NCBI GenBank assembly: GCA_964016885.1
Contig: OZ024740.1
Coordinates: 408,270,001 to 408,334,000 of the forward strand
Source: Eledone cirrhosa
Taxonomy: Eukaryota
Length of the DNA stretch: 64,000 bases
Direction of reading: 5' to 3'
The translations under genes and the position numbers were made by a program. The notes under the pieces were generated by a model. That model had not been told where the DNA came from and did not search any database. It saw nothing but the letters and a program-made list of their open reading frames with translations. Of the stretch, positions 7,200 to 59,103 are shown in pieces (the first letter of the stretch is position 1; each line of letters opens with the position of its first letter).

Positions 7200-7907
7200 T
7201 TATCGCTTGTTAAATACGAGGATCTCACTTAAACCTATTCTTCTCATATAATATTTTAAATATATTTGTTATTATTTCAAACTCTTAATTCCCGCTGCTT
7301 AATATCTTCTCCCCCTCCACCACACTCTACAACATGCGGTCAACCCCCCCCCCCCTCTCTCTCTCTATCTATATATATATAAGATAACCCCCACAAGTAA
7401 TTCACTTTCGCCAAATTTGTGGCCGTTTTTCCTTCATGGTATAATGTAATGTACACATTTTTCTAGCTTTTCTAACATCCGCTTAATTTCATAGTCCTTC
7501 CAAATCCTATAGCATTTTCTATCCTCATTCCAATAGCCATTCCATCCTATTTCCTCCTGTATTCTATGTATTCTCTCTCGTATTTTCCAAAACAAATCTT
7601 GTATTTTTGTTATCGCTTGTTAAATACGAGGATCTCACTTAAACCTATTCTTCTCTCATATAATATTTTAAATATATTTGTTATTATTTCAAACTCTTAA
7701 TTCCCGCTCCTTAATATCTACTCCCCCTCCACCACACTCTACAGCATGCGGTCAACCCCCCCCTCTCTCCCCCTCTATCTATATATATATAAGATAACCC
7801 CCACAAGTAATTCACTTTCGCCAAATTTGTGGCTGTTTTTCCTTCATGGTATAATGTAATGTACACATTTTTCTAGCTTTTCTAACATCCGCTTAATTTC
7901 ATAGTCC
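7195..7907. repeat. ~410-bp tandem repeat (about 1.75 units) directly upstream of full-length RTE-A
   Basis: TTTTGTTATCGCTTGTTAAATACGAGGATCTCAC recurs at 7195 and 7605. Homologous to 52373-52937 (reverse complement). Confidence 0.92.
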
Positions 7908-10900
7908 AACAACTCAACACCCCTCCCTCCCGCCCCCACGCACCACCATTATTATTACGTGGACCAATCATAAGCCAGAGGCCTATACTATCGCTTACCT
8001 GGTCGCCTTCGATATGTAGGATGGAAGGACTACGGAGTTCCGGAGAGTTGAAGAGAGAAAAATCTGGACGCTCAGCGACAATGCCAAAGATAAAGACAAA
8101 CACACCTCGTGGACGAGAATGCGAGCATTCCTCTTTGTTTCGGCCGCGGATGGCTAACATAAGCCCATCTCCCCCCGCTCCCCACCGCTCCCACCCTCCA
8201 AACGCAATCCAAAACTTCAGAGTTGGTACCTTGAATGTAGGCACCTTAAAGGGTCGCTCTAACGAGGTTGTAGAAATGTTTGAACGTAAGGAGGTCGATG
8301 TTTGTTGTATTCAAGAGACCAGGTGGAGGAGTGGATCTGCTAGATTCATTGTGGGTAGAAAACGATGCTATAAGCTTTTCTGGGTGGGAAATGACAATGA
8401 GCTGGGTGGAGTAGGATTCATGGTAGCAGAAAAGTGGGCAGATAAGATAATAGACGTAAATAGAGTGAACGACAGAATAATTAAAATAAGACTTGTCCTC
8501 AATAGAACTACGGTGACAGTAATATCTGCGTACGCACCCCAATCCGGACTGCCCAGCACTATAAAAGACAGATTCTATGAGACACTGATGCTCACTACCT
8601 CCCAAATAACCGACAGTGACTATATAATTATTGCAGGCGACCTAAACGGTCACGTTGGACAACATTGTGACGGCTACGACGAAATCTATGGAGGTTATGG
8701 GTTTGGTACTAGAAATGAGGAAGGCTCCAGAATCCTGGAATTCTGTGACGCAAATAACCTAACTATCTGCAACACTAACTTCAAAAAACGAGACAATCAC
8801 TTGATCACCTACAGATCAGGGGAACATACCAGCCAGGAAGATTATATCCTTACCAGAAGACGTAACAGAGTGACTGTTGTAAACACTAAATCCCTCCCCC
8901 ATGAAGAATGCACCTCCCATAGACTGATAATTAGCGACCTAATAGTCAGGACGAGACGTACTAGACAACAGAAGAGGACTATCCTCAGGAGAAAAATATG
9001 GAAGCTAAAGGACCCCACAGCCAAAAATAAATTTCAAAGCATATTAGTTGATGCTTTCGACAGTAAGGAAGAGCAATTAGAGTCGTACAAGGTAGAGGAA
9101 CAGTGGGAATTCCTGAAAGCAAACCTGCTGACGGCGGCAGACGAAGTTTGTGGCTGAAGCAGGCCTGTAGGCAGGAGGAGAGTAACATGGTGGTGGAACA
9201 GTAAGGTGGAGGGGTCAATTAAGGCCAAAAAGCAGGCTTGGAAAGTATGGCGGGATGGGGGAAGCAGAGAAGACTGTCAAGTGGCCAGGAGGGAAACTAG
9301 GAGACAAGTGTACTTCGCAAGAAGGGAAGCAGAGGAAAGAAAGTTCAAGCACGTTCTACAACGTGAGGACCAAAAACGTGAGGTGTTCAGGATTGCTAGG
9401 CAATGTGTCAAGGAAAACAGTGATATTGTTGGGGAGAAGTGTGTACTTAATGATGACGGCGTACTTGCCATCACCAATGCTGATAAGAAGGTAGCTTGGA
9501 AGTGTCACTATGAAAGGCTACTAAATGAGGAGAATAAATGGGAGAAAGACAGTCTCCCCCACATCGACCCAATAGAGGGACCAGCAGTGTTAGTCGAGGG
9601 TAGTATCATAAGTAAGGCAATCAAAGATATGAAGACGGGTAAGGCGGCTGGGCCTTCGGAAATAGTTGCTGAGACGCTGAAGGCATCTGGTACGGTGGGA
9701 CACACCATGGTCACCCGGATAGTCAACCAAGTCATACAGAATGGGGTTGTTCCGAAGGACTGGCGTAGCAGCATCATCATTAACTGTTATAAGGGTAAAG
9801 GAGATGCCCTAGATAGGAGTAACTATAGAGGCATTAAATTAATAGACCAGGTCATGAAGGTCACGGAAAAAGTAATAGCGCAACTAATCAGAGAGCGAAT
9901 TGATCTAGATGAAATGCAGTTCGGGTTTGTGTCAGGAAAAAGTACCACAGACGCTCTTTTCATTGTACGACAACTACAGGAGAAGTACCTAGCTAAAAGT
10001 AAACCCCTATACTTAGCTTTTGTTGACTTGGAGAAAGCCTTTGACAGAGTCCCCCGCTCCATTATCTGGTGGGCTCTTAGAAAACTAGGTGTTGATGAAT
10101 GGCTTGTGAGAGCTATACAAGCCATGTATAAAGAAACAGTCAGCAAGGTTAGAATTAACAACGAATATAGTGAAGAGTTTAGTGTAAAAGTTGGTGTTCA
10201 TCAGGGCTCTGTTCTTAGCCCCCTACTATTTATTATTGCCCTCCAGGCTATGACAGTGGAGTTCAAGACCGGCTGCCCATGAGAACTCCTATACGCAGAT
10301 GATCTAACGCTCATAGCTGAATCAATGGCTGAGCTAGAGAAGAAATTCCAAACATGGAAGCACGGCCTAGAATCAAAAGGCCTTAAAATTAACCTGGCTA
10401 AGACTAAAGTTCTAGTTTGTAAGAAAGAAAATAAGGCGGCGGTCCCCTCCGGGAAGTGGCCATGCTCAGTGTGTAGGAAAGGCGTAGGTAGAAACTCCAT
10501 TTTGTGTCCCAAATGCAAAGTATGGGTGCATAAAAGATGTAGTGGGATCACAGGTAAGCTAACTAAGAACATAGATTTTACATGTGGCCGGTGTTCTGGG
10601 GCAATAAGTAGCAGCAAGTGCCCAAAAAATACTAGCTCTTTCAACTGCGCAGAGGGTTCTATAGAAATAGTGGACAGCTTCCGTTACCTGGGTGACAAAA
10701 TCAGCAGTGGGGGAGGGTGCTCTGAAAGTACAGTAGCTAGAGTCAGAACTGGGTGGAAAAAGTTCAGAGAGCTTATACCTCTACTAGCTGCTAAAGGGTT
10801 CTCCCTAAAAATGAAAGGCAGGCTGTATGATGCCTGCATACGAACAGCAATGTTGCATGGCAGTGAGACCTGGGCATTGTGTGCAGAGGATATACGCAGA

Positions 10901-11599
10901 CTAGAGAGAAACGAAGCTTGCATGCTCCGCTGGATGTGTAATAGTAATATACGTGAACGGCAAAGCATAAACGAACTAAGGAAAAAATTAGAAATAAGAG
11001 GGATCAGATGGTCACGTGATGCGCATGAAGGACGATAGCTGTATAACAAAGTGCAGGGCAATAAAGATAGACGGTAGCCACGGAATAGGCAGACCCAGAA
11101 AAACCTGGGACGAGCTGATAAATTCCGACCTCACACACTTACACCTCTCCAAGACAATGTCACTGGACCGAGACCTTTGGCGGTACTCAGTAATAGAGAA
11201 GACCCGCCTTACCTAAATACAAAGTAAAACCTACTACAGTCAGTAGGCATCTCTAACAAAATACACCCCCCCCCACCCCATCCACACCGCCCCTTTCAAT
11301 GTAAAGTTATGTTGGTGCCACAACATCCAGGCCGAAACAAATGAGATCGTGTAGGTGCCACGTCAAAAAAACACACAGTTCACGCTGTAATGTGGCCGTG
11401 TAGGCAACACGGTAAAAACCTCCCAGCCCCACACTGTAAATGTGGTTGGTGTTAGGAAGGACATCCAGCTGTAGAAAACCCGCCAGACAGTCCTATGCGA
11501 GCAAGATAATCACTCTTGCCTCAAGTGGGAAACCCCCATCCAAACCCATACAAGCGTGGAACACGGACGTTAAACGTTGATGATGATGATGATGATGAT
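7908..11599 (+). mobile_element. Full-length RTE-clade LINE (family A), inactivated; single APE-RT(+PHD) ORF about 8021-11216
   Basis: APE motifs (TLNVG, IQET, SAYAPQ, GDLNGH), RT motifs (FVDLEKAFDRV, GVHQGSVLSP, YADD, FRYLG), RTE C-terminus GRPRKTW, (GAT)n tail. Stops at 9155 and 10280; ~32-bp deletion near 11010. Confidence 0.97.
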
Positions 11600-21335: not shown

Positions 21336-21734
21336 GGATGAACGAGTACACTGGTTTTCACCTGACTCTCACTTTTGGCTCTAGGACATCTTTCAGCCAC
21401 ACCCTGATAACTGCTTCTGTAGGTAGACTAAACTTAGTGAGGAACAGGATATTTGGAGAAGTAATGGGCACTGCCAAGCATTTCTAAGGTCCACTGAAAT
21501 GCCATGATGGACATATAGTCAAAGATTTAGAGTAGCACCGCTACAGTTGGCTGCACGAGTTATGGGAACTTGATTGATTGATAACTTTTAATATAGTTCA
21601 TATTCGGTGTGAAATCTTAGAGATTGGTGGTTGAGATCGAGAAGACATAGGCAAAGGAAGGCTGAGTTCTATGAGAAAGAATTAGGTTAATTTCAGTGTA
21701 TAAGACACTTTATTTCAGTGTATAAGACGAACTT

Positions 21735-24662
21735 ATGGATAGGTTTTACGAGTCCCTAATACACACTACTGCTCTAACAGACGACAAGGACTTCCTAATC
21801 ATCGCAGGAGATTTTAACGGACACGTAGGTAAACACTGCGACGGCTTCAATAGAGTACATGGAGGCCATGGAGTTGGCACAAGGAATGAGGAAGGATTCA
21901 GACTTCTAGAATTCTGCGACGCCAATGACATGTCGATATGTAACACAAACTATAAAAAACCCAACAACCACCTGATCACCTATAGATCAGAGGAGCACTC
22001 TAGTCAGTTAGATTTTATCCTCATCAGAGGACGTGACAGATGGACGGTCGTAAACACAAAAGCTTTCCCTAGTGAGGAATGTACATCCCAACATAGCTTA
22101 GTTGTCAGCGACCTCACGGTCAGAACTAGACGAGCCCTGAAACAGAGGCCAACCTGGAGAAGAAAGATCTCGAAGCTGAAAGTCCCCTCAACCAGTAACA
22201 GATTTAAAGATATTTTACTCAACGCCTACGACAGTAAAGAAGAACAGATACAGACATTTAATGTAGAAGAGAACTGGGAGTTCCTAAAAAATAATTTACT
22301 AGAGGCGACGGACGAGGTCTGTGGCTGGAGTAAGACCTCAAGCAGGAGGAGAGTGACTTGGTGGTGGAACAATAAGGTAGATGAAGCAGTCAGGGCCAAG
22401 AGACAGGCATGGAAAGAATGGAAGAACGGGGGGAGCAGGGTACATTACATAGAGACCAAGAGGGAAGCTAGGCGACAAGTATACTTAGCTAGGAGGGAAG
22501 CAGAGGATAGAAAATTCAAGCATGTTTTACAACGTGAGGACCAGAAACAGGAGGTATTCAAGATTGCGAGGCAGTGTGTCAGAGATAGTTGTGATGTCAT
22601 TGGAGAGAAGTGTATCCGGAATGATAAAGGTGAGCTTGCCCTCACAAGTGCTGAGAAGAAAGATGCATGAAAGAGTCATTATGATAGATTACTAAATGAG
22701 GAGAATGCATGGGAAGAAGAGACCCTACCCCAAGTAGACCCTATAGAGGGACCAGCAGTACAAGTCAGCGGCAGCGTAGTAAGTAAGGCAATCAGAGATA
22801 TGAAGATGGGGAAGGCAACCGGTCCATCGGGTATAGCTGCCGAGATGCTGAAGGCATCTGGGTCTGTAGGTCACACTATAACCACACGTATCGTTAACCA
22901 GGTAATACTAGAAGGGGCCATACCAAAAGATTGGTGCAGTAGCATCATTGTCAACTGCTACAAAGGCAAAGGCGACGCACTAGATAGAGGAAACTATAGA
23001 GGTATAAAGTTGATGGACCAGGTCATGAAAGTAACAGAAAGAGTTATAGCACAGCTGATTAGGGACCGGGTGAATATAGACGAGATGCAATTTGGGTTTG
23101 TACCAGGAAGAGGCACCACTGATGCCCTCTTCCTTGTGAGGCAATTACAGGAAAAGTACCTAGCTAAAAGTAAGCCACTCTACTTGGCATTTGTCGACCT
23201 TGAGAAAGCCTTTGACAGAGTTCCACGTGCTGTAATCTGGTGGGCTCTTAGAAAACTAGGAGTAGATGAATGGCTTGTGAAAGCGGTACAAGCCATGTAT
23301 AGGGGAGCAGTCAGCAAAGTTAGGATTAGCAATGAGTATAGCGTACAGGTTGGAGTCCACCAGGGCTCTGTTCTTAGCCCTCTCCTGTTCATCATAGTCC
23401 TGCAGGCAATAACGGAGGAATTTAAGATCGGATGCCCATGGGAACTCCTGTATGCTGATGACCTCGCACTCATAGCTGAATCTATGATAGAACTAGAGAA
23501 TAAATTCCAAACCTGGAAGCAGGGACTAGAGAGAAAGGGTCTCAAAGTCAACATGACAAAGACTAAGGTCCTTGTAAGTAGACGAGAAAACAGAACCCAG
23601 ATCCCCTCAGGGAAATGGCCTTGCTCAGTATGTAGGAAAGGTGTAGGTAGGAACTCCATTCTCTGCCCCAAATGCAAACAATGGGTACACAAGAGATGTA
23701 GCGGGATCTCAGGAAGCTTAATTAAGAATGTAGGATTCACATGCAGCAGCTGTGCTGAAACAGCAAGCAGCAAACAGCCACAGGAAACAAGTACCACCAA
23801 TCTCTGGCAGGGCCCTGTAGAAACAGTAGACAGCTTCTGCTACCTAGGTGACCGAATTAGCAACGGAGGTGGGTGTTCAGAAAGTACAATAACTAGGGTA
23901 AGAACGGGATGGAAGAAGTTTAGGGAACTACTACCACTGCTAGCTGCAAAAGGCTTCTCCCTCAGAATGAAAGGCAGACTGTATGATGCGTGTATCCGAA
24001 CAGCGATGTTGCATGGTAGTGAGACCTGGGCGCTGAAGGTGGAAGACTTACGTAGATTAGAGAGAAACGAAGCCTGCATGCTCCGATGGATGTGTAACAG
24101 TAATATACGTGAACAACAAAGCATAAATGAATTGAGAGAGAGACTGAGCATAAGAGGAATCAAATGCTGTGTGCAGGAGAGGCGGTTGCGCTGGTATGGA
24201 CATGTGATGCGTATGAAGGATGACTGCTGCATAAAAAGGTGCAGAGCACTAGAAGTCGATGGAAACCGCGGAGTGGGGAGACCTAAGATGACCTGGGATG
24301 AGGTGATAAAAGCCGACCTTACCCAATTACACCTCTCAAAGACAATGACACACGACCGTGACTTCTGGCGTCACGCAGTAATACAGAGTACCCGACCTCC
24401 CATGGGTACATGCTGAAGCATATAAACAATATGCCCCCACACCTCCCACCGCAAGGTGGTCGTGGAGGTGCCACGGCAAAAAAGCACCCAGCACTCACTG
24501 TAAATGAGGTTGGTGTTAGGAAGGGCATCCAGCTGTAGAAATCAAGCCAGATCAGTTCCTGTATGAGCAAGGCATGGTCAGCCGACCAGACACTGCACAC
24601 AACAGGACAACCCGTCTAACCCATGCTAGCGTGGAAGAACGGACGTAAAACGGTGATGATGA
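21735..24662 (+). mobile_element. 5'-truncated RTE-clade LINE (family B); partial APE, RT with PHD finger, C-terminus
   Basis: ORFs 21735-22670 and 22800-24416 are in the same frame, split by TGA at 22668; YADD present; 3' UTR distinct from family A; GATGATGA tail. Confidence 0.97.
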
Positions 24663-48676: not shown

Positions 48677-51600
48677 TCATCATCATCATCGTCATCGTTT
48701 AACGTCCATCTTCCACGCTTGCATGGGTTTGGACGCAAGAGTGGTTGTCTTGCTCACATAGGAATGTCTGGCGGGTTTTCTACGGCTGGATGCCCTTCCT
48801 AACACCAACCACGTTTACAGTGTGGACTGGGAGGTTTTTACCGTGTTACATACACGGCCACATTACAGCGTGGACTGTGTTTTTTTTGTCGTGACACCTA
48901 CACGACCTCATTTGTTTCGGACTGGATGTTGTGGTACCAACATAACTTTAAATTGAAAGGGGTGGTGTGGATGGAGTGGGGGTAGTGGGACGGGGATGTA
49001 TTTTTGTTAGAGGTGCCTACTGATTGTAGTAAGTTTCACTTTGTACTTAGGTAAGGCGGGTCTTCTATATTACTGTGTAGCGCCAAAGATCGCGGTCCAG
49101 TGACATTGTCTTGGAAAGGTGTAAGTGTGTGAGGTCGAAATTTATCAAGTCGTCCCAGGTTTTTCTGGGTCTGACTACTCCGTGGCTACCGTCTATTTTT
49201 ATTGCCCTGCACTTTTTTATACAGCTGTCGTCTTTCATGCGCATCACGTGACCGTACCAACGTAGTCTTCTCTCGAGTAAACAACATCTGATCCCTCTTA
49301 TTTCTAATTTTTCCCTTAGTTCATTTATGCTTTGTCGTTCACGTATATTACTATTACACATCCAGCGGAGGATGCAAGCTTCGTTTCTCTCTAGTCTGCG
49401 TATATCCTCTGCACACAATGCCCAGGTCTCACTGCCATGCAGCATTGCTGTTCGTATGCAGGCATCATACAGCCTGCCTTTCATTTTTAGAGAGAACCCT
49501 TTAGCGGCCAATAGTGGTATAAGCTCTCTGAACTTTTTCCATCCAGTTCTGACTCTAGCTACTGTACTTTCAGAGCACCCTCCACCACTGCTGATTTTGT
49601 CACCCAGGTAACGGAAGGTGTCCACTATTTCTATAGAACCATCTGCGCAATGGAATGAGCTAGTATTCTGTGGGCACTTGCTGCTACTTATTGCGCCAGA
49701 GCAGCGGCCACATATAAAATCTATATTCTTAGTTAGCTTACCTGTGATCCCACTACATTTTTATGCACCCATACTTTGTATTTGGGACATAAAATGGAGT
49801 TTCTGCCTACTCCTTTCCTACACACTGAGCATGGCCATTTCCCAGATGGGACCGGTGCCCTATTTTCCTTCCTACAAACTAGAACTTTAGTCTTAGACAG
49901 GTTAATTTTAAGGCCTTTTATTTCTAGGCCATGCTTCCATGTTTGGAATTTCTTCGCTAGTTCAGCCATTGATTCATCTATGAGCATTAGATCATCTGCG
50001 TATAGGAGTACCCATGAGCAGCCAGTCTTGAACTACTCTGTTAGAGCCTGAAGGGCAATAATAAATAGTAGGGGGCTAAGAACGGGGCCCTGATGAACAC
50101 CAACTTTTACTCTTCACTATATTCGTTGTTAATTCTAACCTTGCTGACTGTTTCTTTATACATGGCTTGTATAGCTCTCACAAGCCATTCATCAACACCT
50201 AGTTTTCTAAGAGCCCACCAGATAATGGAACGGGGGACTCTGTCGAAGGCTTTCTCCAAGTCGACAAAAGCTAAGTATAGGGGTTTACTTTTTGCTAGGT
50301 ACTTCTCCTGTAGTTGTCGTACAATGAAAAGAGCGTCTGTGGTACTTTTACCTGACACAAACCCGAACTGCATTTCATCTAGATCAATTCGCTCTCTGAT
50401 TAGTTGCGCTATTACTTTTTCTGTGACCTTCATGACCTGGTCAATTAATTTAATGCCTCTATAGTTACCCCTATCTAGGACATCTCCTTTACCCTTGTAG
50501 CAGTTAATGATGATGCTGCTACGCCAGTCCTTCGGAACAACCCCATTCTGTATGACTTAGTTTACTATCCGGGTGACCATGGTGTGTCCCACCGTTCCAG
50601 AAGCTTTCAGCATTTCAGAAACTATTTCTGAAGGCCCAGCCGCCTTACCCGTCTTCATATCTTTGATTGCCTTACTTATTATACTACCTTCGACTAACAC
50701 TGCTGGTCCCTCTATTGGATCGATGTGGGGGAGACTGTCTTTCTCCCATTTATTCTCCTCATTTAGTAGCCTTTCGTAGTGACACTTCCAAGCTACCTTC
50801 TTATCAGCGTCAGTGATGGCAAGTACACCATCATCATTAAGGACACATTTCTCCCCGACAATATCACGGTTTTCCTTGACACATTGCCTAGCAATCCTGA
50901 ACACCTCACGTTTTTGGTCCTTGCGTTGTAGAACATGCTTGAACTTTCTTTCCTCTGCTTCCCTTCTTGCGAAGTACACTTGTCTCCTAGCTTCCCTCCT
51001 GGCCACTTGATAGTCTTCTCTGCTTCCCCCATCCCGCCATACTTTCCAAGCCTGCTTTTTGGCCTTAATTAACTCCTCCACCTTACTGTTCCACCACCAT
51101 GTTACTCTCCTCCTGCCTATAGGCCTGCTCCAGCCACAGACTTCATCTGCCGCCATCAGCAGGTTTGCTTTCAGGAATTCCCACTGTTCCTCTATATTGT
51201 ACGACTCTAATTGCTCTTCCTTACTGTCGAAAGCATCAAGTAATATGCTTTAGAATTTATTTTTGGCTGTGGGGTCCTTTAGCTTCCATATTTTTCTCCT
51301 GAGGATAGTCCTCTTCTGTTGTTTAGTACGTCTCGTCCTGACTATTAGGTCGCTAATTATGAGTCTATGTTGAGAGGTGCATTCTTCATGGGGGAGGGAT
51401 TTAGTGTTAACAACAGACACTCTGTCACGTCTTCTGGTAAGGATATAATCTACCTGGCTGGTATGTTCCCCTGATCTGTAGGTGATCAAGTGATTGTCTC
51501 GTTTTTTGAAGTTAGTGTTGCAGATAGTTAAGTTATTTGCGTCGCAGAATTCCAGGATTCTGGAGCCTTCCTCATTTCTAGTACCAAACCCATAGCCTCC

Positions 51601-52372: not shown

Positions 52373-52937
52373 AGCGAGAAGGATAGGTTTAGGTGAGATC
52401 CCCGTATTTAATGAACGTAAACAAAAATACAAGATTTGTTTAGTAAAATACGCCAAAAACTTCCGTATTTTTACAAGCATGACAGAAATACAAGAGATTT
52501 GTTTTGGAAAATACATGGGGAAATAGGATGGATGGATGACTAGTGAGACAAGAATTGGAAAGAGGATAGAAAAAATGCTATTGGAAGGACTAAATATGCT
52601 ATTGGAAGGACTATGGAATTAGGCGGATGTTAGAAGAGGTAGAAAAATGAGTACATTACATTATAACCATGAATGAATGAAATTCAGCCACAAATTTGGC
52701 GAAAGTGAATTACTTTGTCTTATATATGTATATGGGTAGAGAGAGAGAGGGGGGTGGTGGTGGTGATTTGACCGCATGTTGTAGAGTGTGGTGGAGGGGG
52801 AGAAGATATTAAGGAGCGGGAATTAAGAGTTTGAAATAATAACAAATATATTTAAAATATTGTTAAGAGTTTGAAGTAACAAATATATTTAAAATATTTG
52901 TATATGAGAAGGATAGGTTTAGGTGAGATCCCCGTAT
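52373..52937. repeat. Homologue of the 7195-7907 repeat (one ~530-bp unit plus ~32-bp terminal redundancy)
   Basis: GAGAAGGATAGGTTTAGGTGAGATCCCCGTAT at 52376 and 52906; shared GCCACAAATTTGGCGAAAGTGAATTAC and GGGAATTAAGAGTTTGAAATAATAAC blocks. Confidence 0.9.
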
Positions 52938-52967
52938 ATATATACATATATATATATATACATATAC

Positions 52968-52999
<32 letters not shown>

Positions 53000-53005
53000 A
53001 TATAC

Positions 53006-53084
<79 letters not shown>

Positions 53085-53150
53085 ATCCGTCTAACCCATG
53101 CTAACATGGAAGAACGGACGTAAAACGGTGATGATGATGATGATGATTAT

Positions 53151-54094
53151 AAGTACATACATATATGTATACAGACGTACAGTAGTATGTATATATATAC
53201 ATACATGCACACATATATATATATATGTACGTATGGATTCACCGAACATTTATTATAATGGTCGGTTTGTTTGTAAACAAACATCCCGAATTAAGCTGTA
53301 CAGTGTTTAGCAACCATCGTTGCCCTTTTGTTCAACACTGACAAAGGAACAACGTACTAGTTTCAAGCTTATTAGCTATCGTCAGCTTCCTGCTAGATGA
53401 TTGAATGTTTGAAAGTATATACTTTCCTTATGCATATTAACGGTTGAGCAGCCTAATTTGCATATTGAGTGAGATAATCGGCCGGGGTACCGAAAACGAT
53501 AAATGGAAAAAATGAAACAAAATTTCATTTCTCACGCATTATAATAAATGCTCGGTGAATCCATACGTACATATATATGTGTGCATGTATGTATTTATAT
53601 ACATACTACTGTACGTCTGTATACATATATGTATGTACATATACATACTTATATTTAAGTAACAACCATACTAAGAGTGAGAAATTAAATTTCATTTTAT
53701 TTTTTCCGTTTATCGTTTTTGGTGCACCCGGCTGATTAACTCACTCGATATGCAAATTAGGCTGCTCAGCCGTTAATATGCATAAGGAAAGTACATACTT
53801 TCAGACATTCAATCATCTGCCAGGAAGGTAAACGTTGCTGATGATAGCTAATAAGCTTGAAACTAGTACATCGTTCCTTTGTCAGTGTTGAACAAAAGGG
53901 CAACGTTGGCTTAATTTGAGATGTTTGTTTACAAACAAACCGAGCATTATAATAAATGTTTGGTGAATCCATACGTACATATATATATGTGTGCATGTAT
54001 GTATATACATACATACTACTGTACGTATACATACTTATATTTAAGTAACAGCCGTACTAAGAGTGAGAAATGAAATTTTGTTTCATTTTTTCCA
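53151..54094. mobile_element. Penelope-pLTR/retrozyme-like element: ~410-bp unit in tandem plus an inverted copy
   Basis: 53151-53535 is the reverse complement of about 53676-54030; GCATTATAATAAATG..GGTGAATCCATACG recurs at 53536 and 53944; contains a hammerhead motif. Confidence 0.7.
53831..53875 (+). ncRNA. Minimal type I hammerhead ribozyme motif
   Basis: AACGTTG-CTGATGA-T-AGC(TAATAA)GCT-T-GAAA-CTAG-TA-CATCGTT: conserved core, palindromic stem III, GUA site, stem I 6/7 paired. A degenerate second copy lies on the minus strand at 53348-53390. Confidence 0.65.
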
Positions 54095-54152
54095 TATATA
54101 TATATATATATATATACGTATATATGTATACATATATATATATATATATATA

Positions 54153-55156
54153 TCATCATCATCATCATCATCAACGTTTAACGTCCGTGTTCCACGCTTG
54201 CATGGGTTTGGACGGGGGTAGTCCCACTTGAGGCAAGAGTGATTGTCTTGCTCGCATAGGACTGTCTGGCAGGTTTTCTACAGTTGGATGCCCTTCCTAA
54301 CACCAACCACATTTACAGTGTGGGTCTGGGAGGTTTTTACCGTGTTGCCTACACGGCCACATTACAGCGTGGACTGTGTGTTTTTTTGTCGTGACACCTA
54401 CACGATCTCATTTGTTTCGGCCTGGATGGCGCGGCACCAACATAACTTTACATAGAATGGGGTGGTGTGGATGGGGTGGGGGTGGTGGGACGGGGTGTAT
54501 TTTGTTAGAGATGCCTACTGGCTGGAGTAGGTTTTACTATATATTTAGGTAAGGCGGGTCTTCTCTGTTACTGAGTACCGCCAAAGGTCTCGGTCCAGTG
54601 GCATTGTCTTGGAGAGGTGTAAGTGTGTGATGTCGGAGTTTATCAGCTCGTCCCAGGTTTTTCTAGGTCTGCCTATTCCGTGACTACCGTCTATCTTTAT
54701 TGCCCTGCACTTTGTTATACAGCTATCGACTTTCATGCGCATCACGTGTCCATACCAAGTTTACTCTCGAGTAAACAACATCTGATCCCTCTTATCTCTA
54801 ATTTTTTCCTTAGTTCGTTTATGCTTTGCCGTTCACGTATATTACTGTTACACATCCAGCGGAGCATGCAAGCTTCGTTCCTCTCTAGTCTGCGTATATC
54901 CTCTGCACACAATGCCCAGGTCTCACTGCCATGCAACATTGCTGTTCGTATGCAGGCATCGTACAACCTGCCTTTCATTTTTAGGGAGAACCCTTTAGCA
55001 GCTAATAGTGGTATAAGCTCTCTGAACTTTTTCCAACCAGTTCTGACTCTAGCTACAGTACTTTCAGAGCACCCTCCCCCACTGCTGATTTTATCGCCCA
55101 AGTAACGGAAGCTGTCCACTATTTCTATAGAACCCTCTGCGCAATTGAAAGAGCTA

Positions 55157-56520: not shown

Positions 56521-57307
56521 AGGACTAAAGAGATAATGTACTCCTAGATACATTATCTGAAAGAAAGATAGAATGGTCATGCCTGGATTTTTGTTCTATT
56601 TACCTCTTTATTTATCTATCTACCTATTTATCCACTTTCCTATCTACCTATCTATCTGTTTGCCTATCTGGCTGTGTATAGCTATCTATTTATTTATATT
56701 TACCAATATATCTATCTTCAGACAAGAACAACAATATCAATGACAAAGAAATATGAATCCAGTTAGCAGTCCAAAGATAGATAGACACATAGTTAGAAGA
56801 AACTCATAATAATTTAATGGATATTATGTTTGATAATGACTACATAAAATGTGCAAGAAAATTATTGTAATTGATCTAAATGAAAGTAAAATGAAATACT
56901 GTGATTGCCAGAGTGACAAGAGAATACTTGAGGATTCAAGTATCTTTAGATAAAATATTGTAATTAAAGAATTATTAAATTTAATATTTTTTCTTTTACT
57001 TTGAACTCCATAATTTTTTATGGATAGTATACCTAAATATATATCAATAAAAACTCTGAGGCCATATTCATTTGATTTAGGTTTATTAAAATTCATGATA
57101 AATATTTCACTGAGGACTATCAATTATGACAGCCTGAGCTCCTCAGACAGTAAACCTATAAAACAATGAAATTTCATAAAATCTTTAAATTTGGAAAAGC
57201 TTTACTTTTCTTGATTCAGAGGGCCAGCCGGACATGTGACGTTAGTTGGTCTAGCTTATATCTCCCAAAGTCGAAATTTTGGCTTAATTTTATATATATA
57301 TATATAT

Positions 57308-59103
57308 ACTATAGAGGCATTAAATTAATCGACCAGGTCATGAAGGTCACGGAAAAAGTAATAGCGCAACTAATCAGAGAGAGAATTGATCTAGATGAAA
57401 TGCAGTTCGGGTTTGTGTCAGGCAAAAGCACCACAGACGCTCTTTTCATAGTACGACAACTACAGGAGAAGTACCTAGCTAAAGGTAAACCCCTCTACTT
57501 AGCTTTTGTCGACCTGGAGAAAGCCTTCGACAGAGTCCCCCGCTCCATTATCTGGTGGGCTCTTAGAAAACTAGGCGTTGACGAATGGCTTGTGAGGGCT
57601 ATACAAGCCATGTATAAAGAAACAGTCAGCAAGGTTAGAATTAACAACGAATATAGTGAAGAGTTTAGCGTAAAAGTTGGCGTCCATCAGGGCTCTGTTC
57701 TCAGCCCCCTACTATTTATTATTGCCCTTCAGGCTATAACAGAGGAGTTCAAGACAGGCTGCCCATGGGAACTCCTATACGCAGACGACCTGACACTCAT
57801 AGCGGAATCAATGGCCGAGCTAGAGAAGAAATTCCAAACATGGAAGCACGGCCTAGAGTCAAAAGGACTTAAAATTAACCTGGCTAAGACCAAAGTTCTA
57901 GTTTGTAGGAAAGAAAACAAGGCGGCGGTCCCTTCTGGGAAATGGTCGTGCTCGGTATGTAGGAAAGGCGTAGGTAGAAACTCCATCTTATGTCCTAAAT
58001 GCAAAGTATGGGTGCATAAAAGATGTAGTGGGATCACAGGTAAGCTAACTAAGAACATAGACTTTACATGTGGCCGGTGTTCTGGTGCAATAAGTAGCAG
58101 CAAGTGCCCACAAAATACTAGCTCTTTCAATTGCGCAGAGGGTTCTATAGAAATAGTGGACAGCTTCCGTTACCTGGGCGATAAAATCAGCAGTGGGGGA
58201 GGGTGCTCTGAAAGTACTGTAGCTAGAGTCAGAACTGGTTGGAAAAAGTTCAGAGAGCTTATACCACTATTAGCTGCTAAAGGGTTCTCCCTAAAAATGA
58301 AAGGCAGGTTGTACGATGCCTGCATACGAACAGCAATGTTGCATGGTAGTGAGACCTGGGCATTGTGTGCAGAGGATATACGCAGACTAGAGAGGAACGA
58401 AGCTTGCATGCTCCGCTGGATGTGTAACAGTAATATACGTGAACGGCAAAGCATAAACGAACTAAGGAAAAAATTAGAGATAAGAGGGATCAGATGTTGT
58501 TTACTCGAGAGAAGGCTGCGTTGGTATGGACACGTGATGCGCATGAAAGTCGATAGCTGTATTACAAAGTGCAGGGCAATAAAGATAGACGGTAGCCACG
58601 GAATAGGCAGACCTAGAAAAACATGGGATGAGCTGATAAACTCCGACCTCACACACTTACACCTCTCCAAGACAATGTCACTGGACCGTGACCTTTGGCG
58701 GTACTCAGTAACAGAGAAGACCCGCCTTGCCAGTAGGCATCTCTAACAAACTACACCCCGTCCCGCCACCACCCCCACCCCATCCACACCACCCCGTTCT
58801 ATGTAAAGTTATGTTGGTGCCGCGCCATCCAGGCCGAAACAAATGAGATCGTGTAGGTGTCACGACAAAAAAAACACACAGTCCACGCTGTAATGTGGCC
58901 GTGTAGGCAACACGGTAAAAACCTCCCAGACCCACACTGTAAATGTGGTTGGTGTTAGGAAGGGCATCCAACTGTAGAAAACCTGCCAGACAGTCCTATG
59001 CGAGCAAGACAATCACTCTTGCCTCAAGTGGGACTACCCCCGTCCAAACCCATGCAAGCGTGGAACACGGACGTTAAACGTTGATGATGATGATGATGAT
59101 GAT
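57308..59103 (+). mobile_element. 5'-truncated RTE-A with an uninterrupted RT-PHD-C-terminal frame (young copy)
   Basis: ORF 57166-58746 (RTE part starts at YRGIKL); 5' end in a TA run; (GAT)n tail. Confidence 0.97.

Follow-up and report, generated by a model that had tools for sequence, protein, structure and literature searches.

The 64,000-nt stretch of Eledone cirrhosa DNA analyzed here (the window) holds a repeat with a hammerhead motif on each strand, and the question it raises is what kind of element this is and how it came to be there. The answer bears on the enzyme that moves animal retrozymes, the template it uses and the way these elements are transcribed. We found that the repeat is one decayed insertion of a non-LTR retrozyme family, composed of two head-to-head arms, one on the minus strand (53148-53535) and one on the plus strand (53536-54099), that meet at 53535/53536 inside a (TA)n tract. 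The tandem and inverted arrangement and the (TA)n neighbors had been recognized in a preliminary description made from the letters alone. Its unit of ~410 bp, however, does not match the family, in which units measure 420-433 nt; the spacings of 408 and 386 in the window are due to deletions in this copy. The arms also extend slightly farther than described, the plus arm spanning about 1.4 units to 54099 (instead of ~1.35 units to 54094) and the minus arm beginning at 53148. The features of the locus are as follows.

52935-53084, no strand: (TA)n microsatellite, left portion of the target tract
53085-53147, plus strand: 3' tail fragment of an RTE-type LINE/SINE, in the tract beside the element and not part of it
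53148-53535, minus strand: inverted arm, ~0.9 unit, 5'-truncated at the junction, its outer end being the short family end (E1), without tail
53355-53385, minus strand: hammerhead core of the inverted arm, dead, a 10-nt deletion having removed the 5' arm of stem I
53415-53422, minus strand: TATA-like word of the inverted arm, intact
53453-53464, minus strand: U6/MRP-type upstream word of the inverted arm (12-mer with octamer)
53536-54099, plus strand: forward arm, ~1.4 units, 5'-truncated at the junction, its outer end being the long family end (E2), with tail
53749-53760, plus strand: 12-mer TATGCAAATTAG, candidate promoter element and 5' arm of a predicted RNA hairpin
53791-53798, plus strand: TATA-like word, in this copy one substitution off the family state
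53822-53827, plus strand: predicted start, placed by U6/MRP distances
53817-53886, plus strand: extended type I hammerhead
53832-53837/53869-53874, plus copy: stem I, with a U·U mismatch at 53835/53871
53838-53844, plus copy: core, followed by U·U 53845/53858 and stem II 53846-53849/53854-53857
53859-53862, plus copy: GAAA, followed by the palindrome 53862-53867, with the predicted cut after 53868
54030-54045, plus strand: small predicted hairpin whose loop contains E1 (read through here); second copy at 53644-53659
54039-54099, plus strand: Penelope-type tail of ~60 nt that spans E1 to E2 and contains a hairpin (54067-54089) and a T6 run
54094-54153, no strand: (TA)n microsatellite, right portion of the target tract, overlapping the element end by microhomology
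54154-54420, minus strand: 3' end of an RTE-type LINE in the tract, not part of the element, 99.6% identical to 58834-59101

The tails of RTE-type LINEs that share the tract entered next to the element; the fragment at 53085-53147 resembles the 3' ends of LINE copies of the window, such as 59047-59100, which lies behind an ORF ending at 58746. The rest of the window consists mostly of RTE-type LINE ORFs, among them near-intact copies with endonuclease, RT and PHD finger (7886-11038, 21726-24416, 57154-59101 and others), and the 3' tails of these LINEs lie in (TA)n. An inverted pair at 50109-50465 and 57308-57664 was found to be two RTE-type LINE copies.

The plus-strand hammerhead has the complete core that had been reported (53838-53868), and the predicted cut after 53868 was placed correctly, but stem I carries the U·U mismatch. 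The motif had been called minimal, with a tetranucleotide palindrome in stem III; it is instead a canonical extended type I hammerhead, with a 6-bp stem I, a bulge and a further stem, and the palindrome is 6 nt long (ACUAGU). A core on the minus strand had likewise been located (53385-53355), but it cannot form a hammerhead because the 10 missing nucleotides include the 5' arm of stem I. With both hammerheads damaged the locus cannot make a circle itself, and, since no two cores lie on the same strand, it is a dead end.

A comparison with the family consensus, suggested in the preliminary description as a check, came out in favor of the motif: the core (CUGANGA, GAAA and UH in type I order) was invariant in 19 aligned variants of two families, and stems I and II covaried between them. 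Across these 19 distinct variants 95.4% of the cells were paired, as against 33-48% in slid-partner controls, and seven of 15 pairs had changed on both sides; since the sequences are related, these counts should not be read as probabilities. The third pair of stem I was occupied in 149 family copies by U·G (70), G·U (37), A-U (28), U·U (6), C-G (3) and U-A (2), so that the window's plus copy is one of six with the mismatch and 140 of 149 copies are paired there. The U/U at the base of stem II, which had been singled out as atypical, does deviate from the G-C usually found at this position (10.1-11.1), yet it is no oddity of this copy, being the state of 153 of 159 family copies (C·A in five, C-G in one). 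The same U·U occurs in the axolotl hammerhead HHR_Amex2, for which the portion of the source consulted gives 22% cleavage of the monomer and better cleavage of the dimer (PMC7229834). Penelope hammerheads of the present genome repeatedly show this U·U as well as U3 variants of the core. In Rfam, another check that had been suggested, hammerhead matches stayed below threshold: none reached the gathering score of 52, HH9 scoring 20.4 bits (E 0.28) for the window and 37.7 bits for a sister copy. Matches to microRNA families in Rfam were artefacts of the TA repeats.

Predicted folds were consistent with a ribozyme that works in pairs. Fold z-scores were -3.1 to -3.2 for family hammerheads, -1.05 for the window's plus copy and -0.05 for its minus copy, and about -9 for the circular monomer. 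When a monomer was folded, the core paired with the stem III palindrome, and forcing the active form cost 7-9 kcal/mol. In a real tandem, the dimer-active fold (-166.7) lay 0.2 kcal/mol above the free minimum (-166.9), the cost of two monomer-active folds (-149.7) being 17 kcal/mol. The dimer-active fold is thus predicted to be close to the minimum-energy fold and accessible, and members of the family would, on these models, cleave themselves.

Searches of the 3.0-Gb host genome returned 10,282 exact matches to the 32-nt hammerhead core and none to the reversed pattern used as control; the motif is therefore not a product of chance. A word from the TA-rich part of the unit matched 16,504 times, and 1,579 cores had a same-strand neighbor one unit away. 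The unit has a GC content of 0.36, one type I hammerhead and a longest stop-free frame of 69 codons. A further hallmark of non-LTR retrozymes was found at family loci (e.g., L061, L062 and L304) and not at the window locus. Divergence from the majority sequence, at non-CpG sites and with subfamily sites included, had a median of 6%; that of the window copy was 7.4%. A looser pattern without the U·U form matched 11,325 times, mostly in a sister family with units of 466-469 nt that has G-C at the base of stem II, is homologous to the window family (~60% identical over the whole unit) and shares its palindrome, hairpins and rule for the two ends, described below (L088:2384-2936, L177, L218 and others). 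At least eight further hammerhead families crowd the (TA)n tracts (flanks of L001-L170). In contigs of three sequencing runs of unrecorded kind, one run held the window family at great depth; two runs from other organisms, also of unrecorded kind, held a few pieces, 80-95% alike and at low depth, that cover the hammerhead.

The outer ends of the family's insertions showed a strict pattern. Counted from the predicted cut, 3' ends fell at 216-221 (E1) or at 277 (E2), about 60 nt apart, and 118 of 143 outer ends ran into (TA)n. Among 56 head-to-head clusters, 38 had two canonical ends, and all 38 combined one E1 with one E2; the remaining 18 had one other end, and E1+E1 or E2+E2 pairs were absent from the 56 (p 3.6e-12). 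Twenty-two of the 38 clusters lay in loci sampled along the genome in order, the other 16 in loci selected for similarity; eight overlapping loci were excluded before ends were counted, as were low-complexity matches below 86% identity and clusters that ran off the end of a locus. A second, partly overlapping sample, picked by a 3'-proximal word, gave 21 of 21 E1+E2 among 34 pairs. The sister family gave 14 of 16, the other two having a non-canonical end; for two of its pairs the adjoining stretches were added, and in one of these the outcome had been predicted. The window itself follows the rule, with E1 at its left and E2 at its right outer end. Derived variants were common to both arms of one insertion at a rate of 0.43, versus 0.10 after shuffling (maximum 0.21 in 1000 shuffles), and the two arms therefore stem from the same template or lineage.

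The arms also carry information about the template. At the cleavage site, 57 of 76 arms crossed, 17 stopped before it and two stopped at it; the template was therefore continuous there, either a circle or an uncut multimer, and a linear cut monomer was rejected on the same count, since only two of 76 arms end at the cut. Rates of ending per bin had no edge that would mark a hard 5' limit one unit upstream. RNA-editing scars were also looked for and discarded, rare variants comprising 43 A>G and 50 T>C changes (p 0.47); in the table of all variants, subfamily sites act as a confounder.

Penelope ORFs with RT and, at the C terminus, a GIY-YIG domain are present in the genome, and the host elements carry Neptune-type motifs (DKG and a CX4CxxC linker), the clade having been assigned by motif against Craig et al. 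and not by tree. One Neptune-type family has 6,005 hammerhead copies, mostly short truncated ends. This family obeyed the same rule, with 12 strict and one resolved E1+E2 of 24 pairs, 11 unclassified and none same-ended; an apparent E2+E2 case proved to be an inner pLTR, its outer end being E1. At three loci (L151, L153 and L154), Neptune-type Penelope ORFs, one of 1096 codons without stop, are flanked by E1 and E2 ends. The Neptune-type elements thus have the footprint of the unit without sequence homology to it: among 50 GIY-YIG loci, none had homology to the unit beyond independent insertions, the list of the best 150 GIY-YIG loci being a sample of 10,597 candidates. The partner is therefore deduced from the footprint. 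An RT and GIY-YIG ORF between pLTRs, the feature of an autonomous Penelope element, is absent from the unit, and a Penelope match lay near 12 of 174 family loci, the closest being a separate element that ends in the same tract. The preliminary description had offered "retrozyme or pLTR-like" as alternatives; as far as these 174 loci go, the first of the two appears to hold, and the unit would not be a pLTR belonging to a coding element. Its broader proposal of a non-autonomous, hammerhead-bearing, Penelope-associated family agrees with the genome-wide data, with self-cleavage and circles as probable properties.

The most informative remark of the preliminary description concerned an octamer upstream of the hammerhead, which we located at 53750-53757 on the plus strand and at 53463-53456 on the minus strand. 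We compared the unit with 24 distinct upstream regions of host U6 genes and with the genes for RNase MRP and RNase P. Of the dispersed U6 genes, the two with the highest scores have TATGCAAATNAG at -77/-78 and a TATA box at -31, as does the one RNase MRP gene, and seven of eight distinct upstream regions of a U6 cluster have a variant of the word with one or two changes. In all, the word occurred at -77 to -79 in nine of the 24 U6 regions; the 15 without it are putative pseudogenes, judging by their degenerate 5' ends or microsatellite context. It was absent from the U1, U2 and RNase P upstream regions seen, RNase P having a U1/U2-type word in its place. The unit carries a 12-mer identical to the U6/MRP word, for which the chance expectation is about 3e-4 per unit, and the window's 12-mer is identical to the word at -78 of one of the top-scoring U6 genes. 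The word was found 60-130 nt before the core in 158 of 198 cases in the family, 209 of 240 in the sister family, two of two in one other family and none of 110 in Neptune-type elements, counts that include overlapping loci. Applying the host distances would place the start at the hammerhead's 5' edge, with 11-16 nt left to the catalytic core.

Several observations complicate this picture. The distance between the word and the TATA-like word is 42 nt in the unit (41 in the sister family), 4-6 nt short of the 46-48 nt in U6 and MRP genes, and the distal word of the host (about -265) was not found in the unit with up to two mismatches. Runs of T6 and T4 inside the unit should stop Pol III before the next hammerhead. 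Both promoter words sit in predicted RNA hairpins, which could explain their conservation. In 37% of copies the 12-mer is altered at its position 11, and the very young sister array described below has a mutated word. No accumulation of arm 5' ends was seen where the start is predicted (4 of 76). On balance, we lean slightly toward transcription of the unit from a U6-type promoter. A Pol II promoter of the newt-like snRNA type was rejected: host U1 (13 distinct upstream regions) and U2 (three of 12 loci) lack the octamer, and the unit lacks the U1/U2 words at up to one mismatch. An octamer in newt satellite 2 is said to have been described by Coats and colleagues in 1994. The Pol III promoter of Schistosoma Sm-alpha is tRNA-like.

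Other promoter words of the host were noted in passing. A distal word, ATTAC(C/T)TCCCTT, lies at about -250 to -265 in U1, U2 and U6 genes (L221-L252, L309-L352), and a TCAGT word lies at about -57 in U1, U2 and RNase P; the octamer-like word at -78 is confined to U6 and MRP. The RNase P promoter of the host looks Pol II-type. A different, 310-nt tandem hammerhead family (L077, L100) has the U1/U2/U6 distal word directly after its cut and a U1-type proximal word, with one mismatch, at position 200, which suggests, from motif matches, that a Pol II snRNA promoter may have been captured by another retrozyme.

Long arrays were found in the sister family, where they reach 31 units. In a 30-unit array, variants common to scattered units show later turnover at the DNA level. 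A two-armed array of 18 identical units, the one with the mutated octamer, has correct E1 and E2 ends and is most simply read as repeated turns round one circle, although assembly polishing could also homogenize units. Some arrays have a two-unit periodicity (L061; L286; L161 with L287), in two cases with a weaker hammerhead in alternate units, which could reflect dimer circles or unequal exchange. Alternating dead hammerheads, which would give dimer circles, were seen in one five-unit array and part of another and were absent from five further arrays; we set the idea aside as anecdotal.

Taken as a whole, the window holds a decayed copy of a non-coding repeat that likely transcribes, cuts and circularizes itself and borrows the enzymes of Penelope elements. 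That the locus is a decayed insertion of a non-coding hammerhead tandem repeat, pasted into (TA)n by a Penelope-like RT with a GIY-YIG endonuclease, we consider very probable. Transcription of an intact tandem copy would be driven by the U6-type promoter of the preceding unit and begin 11-16 nt before the core, a step that we favor by a small margin. Two adjacent hammerheads would then, in all likelihood given their predicted folds, pair through the 6-nt palindrome and release a monomer, which, by analogy, would probably be ligated to a circle by a host ligase; an uncut multimer would fit equally. The Penelope enzyme would nick both (TA)n strands and use two fixed RNA sites, separated by about 60 nt, for one priming event each, one site per strand; copying would run through the ribozyme junction, and the two 5'-truncated cDNAs would be joined head to head. 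We consider these nicking, priming and joining steps very probable; what is observed are both ends, their pairing as one of each, the target and the common ancestry of the arms. The full picture of an RNA parasite with a captured U6-type promoter in its circle, cutting as a dimer only, and moved by a Penelope RT dimer that primes two RNA sites, one per nicked strand, is offered tentatively.

Two other movers were weighed against a borrowed Penelope enzyme. The (TA)n-targeting RTE-type LINE of the window could have moved the element, with the inversion produced by ordinary twin priming; RTE 3' tails lie on both sides of the element, and the start of one arm precedes the end of the other by 37 nt at this locus, an offset expected of twin priming. 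Across the family, however, arm starts were unlinked to the end of the other arm (5 and 7 of 35 within 40 nt, 6.6 expected), so that twin priming with contiguous arms was not enriched. The element has no RTE-like 3' repeat tail, its outer ends are fixed internal sites, and the orientation of the RTE tails, into the tract, is that of later insertions; the E1/E2 rule weakens this reading further, and we regard it as highly improbable. Somewhat less remote, but still improbable, is that the unit is the pLTR and tail of an autonomous Penelope element whose 5'-truncated ends are the copies that we see. The target, inversion and one-sided tail are those of the Neptune-type element with its 6,005 mostly truncated copies, and Li et al. 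(2026) derive retrozymes from pLTRs in the portion of their preprint consulted (bioRxiv 10.64898/2026.07.22.740005). Against it, units follow one another at 420-433 nt without an ORF, most arms are longer than the 3' part of one unit and extend into the previous one, and neither a Penelope ORF continuous with the unit nor a shared 5' junction was found in 174 family loci, the one close case being a separate insertion.

A third reading keeps mobilization by Penelope enzymes but would take as template a linear multimer that is not cut, the product of read-through or of Pol II, with the hammerhead and octamer serving as RNA structure only and arrays growing by unequal exchange. Poseidon insertion in vitro uses unprocessed RNA and needs no cleavage, according to the parts of PMC11167929 consulted, and the T-runs, the short TATA spacing, the scattered shared variants and the two-unit periodicity of arrays all fit such a template. 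The invariance of core and palindrome across two ~60% identical families while the stems covary speaks for a working ribozyme instead, as the kept 5' and changed 3' arm of the octamer hairpin speaks for the word itself; the 18-unit array, with the caveat of polishing, is simplest as turns of a circle. We consider the uncut multimer a serious though unlikely alternative to the self-cleaving, circular RNA that we prefer.

In kind, the family is an ordinary non-LTR retrozyme. Among the results listed in our literature searches there was no publication on cephalopod retrozymes; the supplements of PMC7229834 and of the bioRxiv preprint may list cephalopod motifs. Like the metazoan non-LTR retrozymes in the consulted parts of these two sources (PMC7229834; bioRxiv 10.64898/2026.07.22.740005), it has a non-coding, AT-rich tandem unit with one type I hammerhead and a weak stem III, thousands of copies, a highly paired predicted circle and Penelope elements in the same genome. 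Its unit of 430 nt is slightly above the 170-400 nt quoted there for such elements, and, unlike them, most of its copies are 5'-truncated one- or two-armed insertions. In the same portions, mobilization of retrozymes by Penelope elements is proposed from shared motifs, co-occurrence or pLTR phylogeny, and fixed ends, tails and inversions of retrozymes are not described. The palindromic stem III and predicted dimer activity are those of the minimal pLTR hammerheads (Cervera and de la Pena, 2014; PMC4209133, consulted in part); those, however, have a stem I of 4-5 bp, whereas that of the family measures 6 bp and, like canonical type I motifs, carries a bulge and an extension. Newt satellite 2 and Schistosoma Sm-alpha, as presented in the parts of PMC2220036 and PMC6765202 consulted, are also hammerhead repeats with an in-unit promoter that transcribes the next unit, and dimer cleavage is reported there for newt satellite 2. 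The newt promoter is of the Pol II snRNA type and the Schistosoma promoter Pol III; the word of the present family is the element of host U6 and MRP genes, not that of U1 and U2.

The closest resemblance in footprint is to the EN+ Neptune-type Penelope-like elements, which, in the consulted parts of PMC8557442 and PMC11167929, share with the family a (TA)n target, head-to-head 5'-truncated arms, a tail at one end, two internal priming sites and a hammerhead upstream of the ends. The family differs from them in having no ORF, a tail of about 60 nt (30-40 in theirs) and no homology to the host Penelope elements tested. The one-sided tail has been described qualitatively (Craig et al., 2021; PMC8557442, in the part consulted), and two internal priming sites have been observed in vitro with no strand difference (Frangieh et al., 2024; PMC11167929, likewise in part); here, unlike in vitro, the two sites are mutually exclusive across the two arms. 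Relative to the portions of the literature consulted for comparison, what is new is the Penelope end rule on a retrozyme, together with the U6-type word. The family offers mapped priming sites, a one-of-each rule that a coding Penelope element of the host also follows, and a promoter candidate that rests on the host's U6 and MRP genes. If our reading is true, so strict a rule of one end each would give the first genome-scale view of Penelope priming coupled between two strands, as well as direct evidence that Penelope enzymes move retrozymes.
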